A DNA stretch of 25,632 nt from Chlamydiales bacterium (GTDB lineage: Bacteria; Chlamydiota; Chlamydiia; Chlamydiales; JBDQID01), in NCBI GenBank assembly GCA_040264515.1, contig JBDQID010000001.1, forward strand, positions 1 through 25,632. Direction: 5' to 3'. Position numbers and translations under genes: made by a program. Below the pieces are notes generated by a model. The model was not told the DNA's origin and did not search any database. It saw nothing but the letters and a program-made list of their open reading frames with translations. This document shows positions 10,347-13,076 of the stretch, in pieces. How positions within the stretch are numbered: the first letter of the stretch is position 1; each line of letters begins with the position of its first letter.

Positions 10347-13076
10347 TTATGTGTAATAGCTTAGAATAGCTTCATCTTTCTTGGGCTTAATGAGGTTTAT
10401 AGCCTCTGTGAAATCGGACATGCGGATCTTTCCAATCTCAGAATAGTCGTATTTGCTCTCTGTATACTCCTCGCTTTCATCGGATTCATACGCTTCTAGC
10501 TTACGAGCAAACGCTAGTGAATTGGCCTCGTTCACTAAGCCTTCAATATCGGCTCCCGTCCACCCTTTTGTCATTTCGGAGAGTGTATTAAAGTCGACAT
10601 CATCACTTACGAAACCGTTTTCTAGAGTTGTTTTTATATGGATTTGGAAAATTTCCTCTCGTCCCTTTCTATCAGGGAAACCGATCGAGATGTGATCGCC
10701 CAAACGCCCCTTTCGTACGACAGCAGGGTCGAGAAGATCTTTGTGGTTGGTAAGCCCAACGACAAGGATGTTATTGAGAGGATTAAGTCCATCCATTTCA
10801 GCGATAAACTGATCGACGACACTGTTCTCATAACGAGCATTATCTTCGTGGCGTGTTCTTAAAATCGCATCGATTTCATCGATAACAATTACGTATAGGG
10901 GACTATTAGAGCCGTATTTTGTTGATGCCTCTCGTGCTGGTTTAAACAGATCTCGTATAGCTTTTTCTGAATTTCCAAGCCACTTATTCCAGATCGAAGG
11001 TCCTGCAAGCATTTTAAGACGCTCGCCTTGGCAGCCAAGGAGGGTTCCAATTTGGCGAGCAAGGGTGGTTTTACCGGTTCCCGGAGGTCCATAGAGGAGA
11101 AGGCCGCGGACAGGTTTAAGGTTTCTACTGGTTAATTCGTCTTTGAACTCTGTTGGTAAAAGCACTTTGCGTAGAACGCGTTTGAACTGTTTGCCTAAGC
11201 CTCCAAGTCCCATTCCTTGTAGTGCTTGATCGATGTTAGAGACACGAATATCTCGTTGAGGATAGAAGATGCTCATTGCGCTCTCAGGTTTTACAACGAA
11301 TTTAATTTTTGTATCGCTAGTTTGTGTTGCAAGGGTGTTGTACATGGAAGAGGGAATATCGCTCTCTTGGAATTGCATACCCTTAATGCGGAACTTAAGA
11401 TTTTGATCATCCTCTGTAGATACAGAAAAGTTTTGACCCTTGATAAGTAGTACAGGAAGTCTTTCCTCTGCAAGTTTTCGAAGCTCTCTTATATCAACAG
11501 ACTGTGTTTCACTATCTTCTTCATCTTCATCAAAAAACGATCTTGTACTTTTACGACTGCTAGGTGTAACTTCGATGGTAACTTCCCTGAGCTGATGGGG
11601 ATTACTATCTGCTACGAGCTTTATTTCGTTTTCGGATGCTACTTGGAATTTTAATTTACTCTCTTCTCCTACGCCCCAGAGAGTTGAATATTTTTCTTCT
11701 CTTCGAGTCACACCGTCAGCCTTTGCTTTTGATAGCTGGATAAGGTAGCGCTCTGTGTTGTGATGGAGAACTAATTTTTCGTTGCAAGCAAGTTGAATTC
11801 CCATCTCTCTTATCGTAGCAGTAAGCTCTTTGACATTAACCCAGTGATATTTAGGGTTAAATACCTCTTCGTCGTTTTCTGGATCCACACTGAGAATTTC
11901 AAAGCGTAGCTCAGATGCCGTTAGAACGGAGCTTTTGGAGATAATAAGGTCTCTACTACTGTCAATGCTAATCGCTGTTGTGTCTTGTAGCTGATACATT
12001 CTGGTGTACCCTTCATCTACGATTGAGCGAGAGGGAAGAAGAGGGAATTGCTCCGGGTTTATTTTAGCTTTTTTAAGTTCAGCGATGACTTCATGTCCTC
12101 CGACGCTTCCCAAAGGATTCCGATCTCCAACTTTTAACGTTTTTCCTTTCAACTGCTCTTTGATAAAAGTTTGCATGTGATCGCAAGTACAAGAGATTGG
12201 AAGTGGGGTTTTGCCTTGCTCGAAATCATCTTGTGTATACCGTCTTCGAATTCGAGAAAAACCTGTTTTATTTTTAATTGAAAGAGTGAAATCAAGCCTT
12301 TTTATTCCATCGGATATCACTTGGTCAAAGAGAATGATTTCAGAGGCCTCTTTGATCTTAAAATCAAGGAGTGTGCTTGCACTTATCCATCCATGCCTTG
12401 GCTGAGCACCGCTGTTTAGTAGGGGGTTGAATATAGGCGAAATCATTTTTAGAACGAAAGTTCCTTCGGGAAGATGGATCAGAAGAGATTGCCCTTTTCG
12501 AAAAAAGTGCTGCTCGTACTTTCTTTGCATGTATCCGCGTAGTTTTTGAAGGCTTAAGGTTATTGGCTCGGATGTCTGTTTGGAGAAGTCGCTTGGATGC
12601 ACTTCGATTTCAAATAAAGCGTGATAGAGCTGTTGATGGCTGTGATCTCTTACATCGAGGGGAGAGAGCATTATATTATTGTTTTTCAGTTGTGGAAAGG
12701 TCGCATCCTCGCAATCTCTGTATTGATATTTGTTTAAGGCGATAACACCTGGTGGTATCCAGGGGGAGATTTTTAGATTGTAGATTTGGTTGGCGACTTG
12801 GATGTATCGTGGACCTGAAGCTAAAACAGTAGAATACATAAAGAGTTGGTGAACATCCCTTGGGCTTATCCATAGTTCGTTATGCATTGCATCGGAGAAA
12901 TTACCAAGGATTACAATTTTTGCAATGAGTCCAGGTGGTAAGGGCTCTGGGAGAGTTGAAGGTCCTTCGGTACGTGCTCTTTTAAAGCTGCGTCGTACAA
13001 CTAGACTATTACTGCCGATAGGGCTTGCTGTAGCAGAAGATGGTGCAAAGGATGAAGCTGGATCGATTGTTGCCAT
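10347..13076 (-). CDS. NSF/Sec18 (vesicle-fusing ATPase)-like AAA+ protein: N-domain, tandem Nc/CDC48_2-like repeats, D1, no D2
   Basis: GLGGLGKQF, GLLLYGPPGTGKTTLARQIG.LL, WNKWLGNSE, GSNSPLYVIVIDEIDAI, LNNILVVGLTN, RKGRL and GADIEGLV match NSF D1 signatures. GAGAGG RBS lies upstream. Confidence 0.85.
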   Translation of the reverse strand: MATIDPASSFAPSSATASPIGSNSLVVRRSFKRARTEGPSTLPEPLPPGLIAKIVILGNFSDAMHNELWISPRDVHQLFMYSTVLASGPRYIQVANQIYNLKISPWIPPGVIALNKYQYRDCEDATFPQLKNNNIMLSPLDVRDHSHQQLYHALFEIEVHPSDFSKQTSEPITLSLQKLRGYMQRKYEQHFFRKGQSLLIHLPEGTFVLKMISPIFNPLLNSGAQPRHGWISASTLLDFKIKEASEIILFDQVISDGIKRLDFTLSIKNKTGFSRIRRRYTQDDFEQGKTPLPISCTCDHMQTFIKEQLKGKTLKVGDRNPLGSVGGHEVIAELKKAKINPEQFPLLPSRSIVDEGYTRMYQLQDTTAISIDSSRDLIISKSSVLTASELRFEILSVDPENDEEVFNPKYHWVNVKELTATIREMGIQLACNEKLVLHHNTERYLIQLSKAKADGVTRREEKYSTLWGVGEESKLKFQVASENEIKLVADSNPHQLREVTIEVTPSSRKSTRSFFDEDEEDSETQSVDIRELRKLAEERLPVLLIKGQNFSVSTEDDQNLKFRIKGMQFQESDIPSSMYNTLATQTSDTKIKFVVKPESAMSIFYPQRDIRVSNIDQALQGMGLGGLGKQFKRVLRKVLLPTEFKDELTSRNLKPVRGLLLYGPPGTGKTTLARQIGTLLGCQGERLKMLAGPSIWNKWLGNSEKAIRDLFKPAREASTKYGSNSPLYVIVIDEIDAILRTRHEDNARYENSVVDQFIAEMDGLNPLNNILVVGLTNHKDLLDPAVVRKGRLGDHISIGFPDRKGREEIFQIHIKTTLENGFVSDDVDFNTLSEMTKGWTGADIEGLVNEANSLAFARKLEAYESDESEEYTESKYDYSEIGKIRMSDFTEAINLIKPKKDEAILSYYT

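Follow-up and report, generated by a model that had tools for sequence, protein, structure and literature searches.

P0001, the product of an NSF-like gene in the first 25,632 nucleotides of contig JBDQID010000001.1 of a Chlamydiales bacterium (assembly GCA_040264515.1; this whole stretch is referred to below as the window), is a single-ring AAA ATPase whose nearest known relative, in both its N domain and its D1 ring, is the eukaryotic protein NSF. It adds one more divergent protein to the type 2 NSF-like family, which is already in the literature, and is therefore no discovery of kind; new here are the family-scale description of a fourfold array of the second half of the N domain (N_B), the loss of an arginine that in NSF contacts SNAP, a reinvented second ring in some members, and above all a conserved C-terminal tail of the type found in proteasome activators. 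The reading that we favor, with a probability of about one-half, is that P0001 is a host-directed unfoldase working as a single ring.

An NSF-type N domain with an amplified second half

Residues 1 to 620 of P0001 have no significant sequence match in Pfam or the Protein Data Bank (PDB), only chance-level matches to topoisomerases (E values of 0.01 to 0.03), and their relationship to NSF emerges from structure and profile comparisons. An AlphaFold2 model of residues 1 to 618, built with the family alignment as input, has a mean predicted local distance difference test score (pLDDT) of 77, and its best 50 Foldseek matches in the PDB are all NSF or Sec18. Residues 47 to 252 of the model align with the NSF N domain (1qdn; VIA-align) with a Z score of 19.4 and a root mean square deviation of 2.8 Å over 181 residues, p97 N domains reaching only a Z score of about 15, and the profiles built from 121 family N domains and from 34 eukaryotic NSF N domains match at a probability of 99.8% (E value, 7e-29). 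An NSF-type N domain, composed of a double-psi barrel and an alpha/beta roll, is thus present in P0001.

The barrel half (N_A) is followed by four N_B-like units, the first of which corresponds to the canonical second half of the NSF N domain (Table 1). The four units match one another with probabilities of 96.7 to 98.7%, and all of them also match the corresponding part (N_B) of the NSF N domain; in the region of the second unit, a beta-alpha-beta pattern recurs in the AlphaFold2 model. BLASTP comparison of the N region with itself finds no repeats, and the array is visible only by profile-profile comparison. Preceding N_A is the Ser/Ala/Pro-rich N terminus described in the original prediction, and it is predicted to be disordered over residues 1 to 46. 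Leaders in the family have a median length of 35 residues and are enriched in Ser, Pro, and Thr; that of P0001 contains neither a signal peptide nor a transmembrane segment (maximum hydropathy, 1.3).

A single, catalytically intact ring of the NSF D1 type

Pfam identifies a single AAA domain in P0001 (residues 659 to 799; E value, 1.4e-31) together with AAA_lid_3 (residues 826 to 866) and nothing beyond, and the protein ends nine residues past the D1 lid without reaching a D2 ring, which holds the hexamer together in NSF. The motifs quoted in the original prediction are all found where it placed them, exactly so for Walker A, and it was also right that Walker A, Walker B, the pore loop, and both Arg fingers are intact (the residue and base numbers of the KWLG pore loop are derived from the WNKW read at 10980-10991). 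Because an alignment of 12 family members shows no variation at the Walker A Lys (K669), the Walker B Asp-Glu pair (D733 and E734), the sensor-1 Asn (N777), or either Arg finger (R788 and R791), the enzyme is very probably active.

The ring is of the NSF D1 type rather than that of CDC48, VAT, or FtsH, and the NSF-D1-specific signatures proposed for it are borne out by several comparisons. In the PDB sequence search, VAT heads the list at 277 bits because two domain scores (137 and 139 bits) are summed, and p97 likewise collects about 270 bits over two stretches, whereas NSF/Sec18 matches in one stretch at about 219 bits (query positions 13 to 268 against NSF residues 211 to 467, which is D1), compared with about 138 bits per domain for VAT. 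The family D1 profile scores NSF D1 at 310 to 322 bits, the D1 and D2 rings of CDC48 at 180 to 218 bits, and the FtsH of the window's own genome at 150 bits; the next-best partial matches in NCBIfam are to the CDC48, PAN, and Mpa families, and in a BLASTP alignment, residues 576 to 898 are 39% identical to a fungal NSF. The spacing from Walker A to Walker B is 64 residues in the family and 61 to 63 in NSF D1, against 53 in CDC48 D1, CDC48 D2, and FtsH, and an insertion of 9 to 11 residues is therefore common to NSF D1 and the family. With one ring, a D1 closer to NSF, and a well-supported split in the tree described below, P0001 is not of the CDC48/p97/VAT type. Eukaryotic NSF/Sec18 is its closest solved relative, sharing the homologous N domain and D1, the Walker A-B insertion, the aromatic pore loop, and the two Arg fingers; P0001 differs in having no D2, four N_B units, a replaced Arg67, and a hydrophobic-Tyr-X (HbYX)-type tail, and in branching outside the crown NSF clade.

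A conserved HbYX-type C-terminal tail

Beyond the lid, P0001 ends in a short flexible tail with the terminus Tyr-Tyr-Thr, and this ending follows a pattern that is conserved across the family. The penultimate residue is Tyr or Phe in 87 of the 104 representatives with a complete last AAA module (the background for these two residues is 7%), and in 84 of the 104 it is preceded by a hydrophobic residue, usually Met. The motif lies 5 to 18 residues past the lid, many of the tails having Pro- or Gly-containing ends such as PFGMY and PEGMY, and it is kept in the six viral-clade sequences inspected and in most of the two-ring members listed. In 240 NSFs, the residues common at the penultimate position do not include Tyr or Phe; in archaeal CDC48-like proteins, one or the other is penultimate in 72 of 104. 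The original prediction did not mention this tail, which, judged from its sequence, points to a different partner.

Hydrophobic-Tyr-X endings are the means by which PAN, Rpt2/3/5, Mpa, and archaeal Cdc48 dock into the pockets of the 20S alpha-ring, and the equivalent C-terminal ending of p97 binds PUB and PUL domains. P0001 shares with these proteins a classical AAA ring (presumed hexameric in P0001 by analogy), a substrate-binding N part, and the flexible tail; it differs in that its ring is of the NSF D1 type, about 100 bits nearer to NSF than to CDC48, in having no coiled-coil/OB ring, and in coming from a group of carriers in which no 20S core is found. A search for PF00227 (20S/HslV) is negative in five carrier genomes, those being the window's genome (69% complete) and four near-complete ones (96 to 99%), with the control search being positive in 10 of 14 reference genomes, and no giant virus is known to encode a 20S core. 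The simplest expectation is accordingly that any partner the tail has comes from the host. A complex prediction with the last 32 residues and two Thermoplasma 20S alpha subunits scores 0.18, which is under the level for a verdict either way, and we found no paper in the literature linking HbYX to type 2 NSF-like proteins.

The canonical SNAP interface

NSF holds alpha-SNAP through R10, R67, K68, and K104, and SNAP-SNARE binding is reduced in R67 mutants (reviewed in PMC11532144, citing Zhao 2015 and Matveeva 2002). These contact columns were mapped through the alignment of the family and NSF profiles, with 33 to 34 eukaryotic NSFs and 94 to 121 family members per column; the neighboring Gln66 is conserved in both groups, and the alignment is therefore in register. 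All 34 eukaryotic NSFs have Arg in the R67 column, which is basic (Lys or Arg) in only 21% of 121 family members; Tyr and Phe are commonest there in the family, and P0001 has Tyr119 (12720-12722). The remaining columns are basic in 62% of NSFs and 24% of the family (K68; Arg120 in P0001), 56% and 11% (K104; Lys166), and 33% and 15% (R10; Ile56). By this alignment, the canonical SNAP interface is not conserved across the family, and no SNAP homologue is found in the five carrier genomes.

The proposal that P0001 remodels SNAP/SNARE complexes thus loses its key determinant, Arg67, and the basic residues at K68 and K104 are not conserved in the family. Co-assembly with host NSF likewise finds no support, as hexamerization of NSF depends on D2, which P0001 does not have.

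Phylogenetic position and giant-virus relatives

A maximum-likelihood tree of 84 AAA modules (LG+C20; ultrafast bootstrap and Shimodaira-Hasegawa-like approximate likelihood-ratio test supports) was computed with prokaryotic outgroups only, PEX1/6, AFG2, NVL, and Rpt lying outside the sampling. The family forms a clade of 40 rows with supports of 100/95 that includes P0001 and a viral D1, and eukaryotic NSF D1 forms another of 20 rows (100/99) spanning jakobids, heteroloboseans, an amoebozoan, plants, algae, a haptophyte, and fungi. The family and NSF together are split from CDC48 D1, CDC48 D2, FtsH, and other AAA modules with supports of 100/100 on a branch of 0.78. With these outgroups, and because of the per-domain scores against solved structures, the family is placed as sister to all sampled eukaryotic NSF D1 domains and is not nested among them. 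The expectation that the D1 of P0001 would fall with NSF is therefore correct as regards its nearest relative and its separation from CDC48 and FtsH, and incorrect as regards the eukaryotic NSF clade itself, outside of which it branches. Constraining the family to group with the amoebozoan (Physarum) NSF costs 33.6 log-likelihood units and is rejected (approximately unbiased test, P = 0.004), which rules out recent capture from an amoebozoan host. With the family sister to a monophyletic NSF and this grouping rejected, the gene is not host derived in the sense of recent capture, as had been suggested; divergence inside the family is three times that inside NSF.

Khalifeh, Neveu, and Fasshauer (Traffic 2022; PMC9546365) described a "second, more divergent" NSF type with D1 only in megaviruses and homologues in Waddlia, Estrella, Criblamydia, and two other chlamydiae, some of them with a second D-domain; the homology was noted to reach into the N-terminal region, and the function was left open. 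P0001 agrees with these type 2 proteins of the Mimiviridae and Chlamydiae in its divergent D1 and common N-terminal region, the family having one or two D-domains, and it shares a clade with an open reading frame (ORF) from a Megavirus-size contig. The passages of that paper concerned with these proteins give a domain sketch and do not include an NSF N domain with four (in some members seven) N_B units, the tail, the Arg loss, the origin of the second ring, or the size of the family.

The giant-virus ORF in question (L027, 1870-4305, plus strand) lies on the 1,259,197-bp contig IMGVR_UViG_2597490056_000001 and codes for an 811-residue protein with N_A, four N_B units, D1, and an Ile-Tyr-Met end. 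It matches the N-region profile with 138.6 bits over residues 56 to 513, and the N-region model also aligns with a Moumouvirus protein, over 585 columns. The default composition filter of HMMER hid the giant-virus N-region match until filters were switched off, and AT-rich viral members are therefore probably undercounted in the family census. The viral D1 nests inside the family, beside a metagenomic member with giant-virus-like neighbors (a replication factor C subunit, a tRNA-synthetase-like gene, a papain-like peptidase, and an ankyrin protein).

Family size, architectures, and distribution

The N-region profile recovers 254 clusters (at 50% identity) with E values of 1e-3 or below from 1.84 billion representative proteins, 101 of them below 1e-30. 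No other sequence found exceeds 39% identity to P0001, and an exact search for it in public assemblies returns no record. Among 116 N-complete representatives, the layout of P0001, a single AAA ring preceded by four N_B units, is seen in 74; another 9 combine a single ring with seven N_B units, 19 combine two rings with four N_B units, and 2 others also have more than one ring. The absence of D2 claimed in the original prediction accordingly holds for P0001, which has one AAA match and ends after the lid, and does not extend to the whole family, in which multiple AAA rings occur in 21 of the 116 representatives. Those second rings that were sampled fall within the family's own D1 clade and therefore reflect internal duplication; derivation from an NSF-type or CDC48-type D2 is rejected.

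The seven-N_B members include P0003, P0008, and P0240-P0247 (about 1,200 residues). In P0003, the order of the units by best-matching model is R1-R2-R3-R4-R2-R3-R4, suggesting duplication of an R2-R3-R4 triplet, and the length of the array would therefore be evolvable in three-unit steps.

Family members occur in 18 of 300 sampled genomes of the phylum, with at most three matches per genome, and these carrier genomes are 1.7 to 3.2 Mb. None of the 29 sampled genomes of the taxonomic family with genomes of 1.0 to 1.2 Mb, a size typical of the Chlamydiaceae, has a member. Where source labels exist, they are Chlamydiales, Waddliaceae, and one "Verrucomicrobiota" metagenome-assembled genome (MAG). 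The window's genome (2.0 Mb, 69% complete) has a single copy with no paralogue in the assembled portion, FtsH being the only other close classical AAA protein.

Coordinates and genomic neighborhood

Table 1. Features of the NSF-like gene and the adjoining gene in the window
Feature	Position	Strand	Residues	Remarks
Whole coding sequence	10347..13076	-		P0001; 909 codons plus stop, ATG start, uninterrupted ORF
Leader	12939..13076	-	1-46	Ser/Pro/Ala-rich; predicted disordered; pLDDT <50 in both models; poorly conserved in family
N_A subdomain (double-psi barrel half)	12642..12938	-	47-145	hhalign probability vs NSF N domain 98.5
N_B-like repeat 1 (canonical second half of NSF N domain)	12309..12641	-	146-256	hhalign vs NSF N_B 98.6, E 6e-16
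N_B-like repeat 2	11922..12308	-	257-385	hhalign R1-R2 97.6; vs NSF N domain 92.9
N_B-like repeat 3	11601..11921	-	386-492	hhalign R1-R3 98.2; vs NSF N domain 95.0
N_B-like repeat 4	11241..11600	-	493-612	hhalign R1-R4 98.7; vs NSF N domain 96.7
NSF-D1-type AAA module	10377..11234	-	615-900	
Walker A	11067-11090	-	663-670	GPPGTGKT
Pore loop	10974-10985	-	698-701	KWLG; aromatic
Walker B	10875-10880	-	D733/E734	
Arg fingers	10704-10715	-	788-791	RKGR
Flexible C-terminal tail	10350..10382	-	899-909	pLDDT ~35; predicted free; Tyr-Tyr-Thr end at 10350-10358
Heme-oxygenase-like gene	9504..10331	-		PF01126, E 1.3e-18; 15 nt downstream of the NSF-like stop

The NSF-like gene and the heme-oxygenase-like gene downstream of it are probably cotranscribed as one unit; the 15-nucleotide gap between them holds an AAGGA-type site, and a terminator-like hairpin (9373-9357) lies past the second gene, whose product has a Ser/Thr-rich N-terminal extension of about 75 residues. 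Neither this pairing nor the divergent cyclase gene described below recurs at the three other family loci inspected, and because the neighborhood differs across the four loci compared, context gives no functional clue. The NSF-like gene has a G+C content of about 42%, the same as that of the remainder of the window.

Two other genes in the window have features of note. Divergent from the NSF-like gene, positions 13249-15201 (plus strand) code for a 650-residue protein with a Pfam class III adenylate/guanylate cyclase domain at residues 386 to 566 and an N-terminal half that appears by eye to be hydrophobic and membrane spanning. Positions 1378-3798 (minus strand) code for an 806-residue Clp/Hsp100-like protein in which Pfam sees only the second ring (AAA_2 at residues 543 to 706 and ClpB_D2-small); over the first 540 residues there is no more than a weak trace of AAA_16, the first ring being very divergent or degenerate.

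Elsewhere, FliO-like, CsrA, and YbjN-family genes (L025, 5858-7892; contig JBGSQP010000028.1 of assembly GCA_041738095.1) lie directly upstream of a seven-repeat member, and the same 186-kb contig also holds a two-ring paralogue, P0279. The YbjN fold is one that we take to resemble type III secretion chaperones. Ankyrin-repeat genes adjoin the family gene in a Waddliaceae MAG (L026, 5153-6010) and on a giant-virus-like contig (L103, 3684-4364), which may be coincidence or a recurring pairing of host-interaction genes.

Proposed function and alternatives

As a host-directed unfoldase, P0001 would assemble as a single-ring hexamer and pass its clients through the D1 pore in the manner of NSF D1, with the N_A/N_B array holding clients or adaptors by means other than the canonical alpha-SNAP interface. 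It would act in the host cytoplasm, reached by type III delivery in chlamydiae and by cytoplasmic synthesis in viruses, and the C-terminal tail would tether the ring to a host receptor that recognizes endings of this kind, possibly the 20S core. A host role is plausible by analogy because amoebal giant viruses carry the same architecture; viruses have no bacterial cytoplasm, and the conserved design must therefore work in a eukaryotic cell. Besides these viral homologues, action in the host cytoplasm is suggested by the patchy and fast-evolving nature of the family (its threefold internal divergence is typical of host-interaction genes), the lack of a bacterial tail partner in the carrier genomes searched, a type III export gate encoded in the window's genome, and the disordered leader.

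Several points weigh against this reading. That the protein can form hexamers in the absence of D2 is an assumption drawn from PAN, FtsH, and Vps4, and the tail could serve ring assembly instead of docking. Secretion of P0001 is a step that we infer; we know of no testable consensus for chlamydial type III signals, and the literature yielded no report of secretion for a chlamydial family member. No AAA ATPase is among the 19 proteins listed by a shallow screen of the Waddlia host-cytosol proteome (PMC7143554). The sister relation to NSF, in turn, leans on the prokaryotic-only outgroups and on per-domain scores.

A narrower version of the host-directed reading has the tail docking on the 20S core of the host, or on a different host receptor such as PUB- or PUL-domain proteins, which would make the family a pathogen-supplied proteasomal ATPase with clients chosen by the N_A/N_B array; the conserved tail motif is what suggests this idea, which we hold tentatively and consider unlikely. 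The hydrophobic-Tyr-X end might instead have no docking role and pack on a neighboring subunit or on the protein's own N array, thereby stabilizing a ring without D2. A family that has dispensed with the hexamerization domain of NSF does need another source of stability, but the tail is predicted to be free and disordered in the monomer model, its shortness and often Pro/Gly-containing ends resemble those of proteasomal ATPases, and two-ring members keep the motif as well, all of which makes packing very unlikely.

It is somewhat unlikely that P0001 is a housekeeping or stress unfoldase kept in the chlamydial cytoplasm for quality control or complex remodeling, its tail binding a bacterial partner or steadying the ring. 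The inferred nature of secretion, the match in G+C content with the window, and the position of the gene among core genes (pgk, a pdxH-like gene, and a major facilitator superfamily transporter) fit such a role, and bacterial Cdc48-like ATPases with internal roles exist, for example, the actinobacterial Cpa, which interacts with the proteasome (PMC6017811). As portrayed in passages of that report, Cpa belongs, like P0001, to the NSF/Cdc48 superclade in bacteria, but it is of the two-ring Cdc48 type and uses its own bacterial 20S, whereas the chlamydial family is of the NSF type and no 20S is found alongside it in the five carrier genomes. Against a purely internal role stand the identical architecture and tail in giant viruses, the lack of a 20S/HslV in the carrier genomes searched on which the tail could dock, a distribution (18 of 300 genomes and none of the 29 small ones) that is not that of a core gene, the multicopy and fast-evolving character of the family, and neighborhoods that differ at the four loci. 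Quite unlikely, in our view, is a secreted NSF mimic whose N domain binds host alpha-SNAP/SNARE and which disassembles or traps complexes, or poisons NSF, and so controls vacuole fusion. The parts with which NSF holds SNAP and threads SNAREs, the N domain and D1, are both homologous in P0001, the pore loop and catalytic residues are intact, Lys166 and Arg120 occupy the K104 and K68 positions, and passages of Khalifeh et al. (PMC9546365) leave the possibility open; yet the invariant Arg67 is a Tyr and K68, K104, and R10 are not conserved either, three added N_B modules alter the distance from N_A to the pore, a protein without D2 has no basis for entering NSF hexamers, the conserved tail has no role in NSF biology, and the family is not nested in NSF.

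Implications

NSF is a hallmark eukaryotic machine, and here a prokaryotic and viral sister family keeps its N domain and D1 with the surroundings re-engineered: N_B is amplified, D2 is lost or reinvented, and a Cdc48/PAN-type tail is present, a case of retargeting of an unfoldase module. The family has been largely unstudied since its brief mention in 2022, and these features give a concrete and testable alternative function. Should docking of the tail on the host proteasome prove real, the family would to our knowledge provide the first microbe-encoded proteasome cap, and bacteria and giant viruses competing for the same amoebal host would be using the same tool; amoeba-infecting chlamydiae and giant viruses would then have ubiquitin-independent control over the degradation of chosen host proteins.

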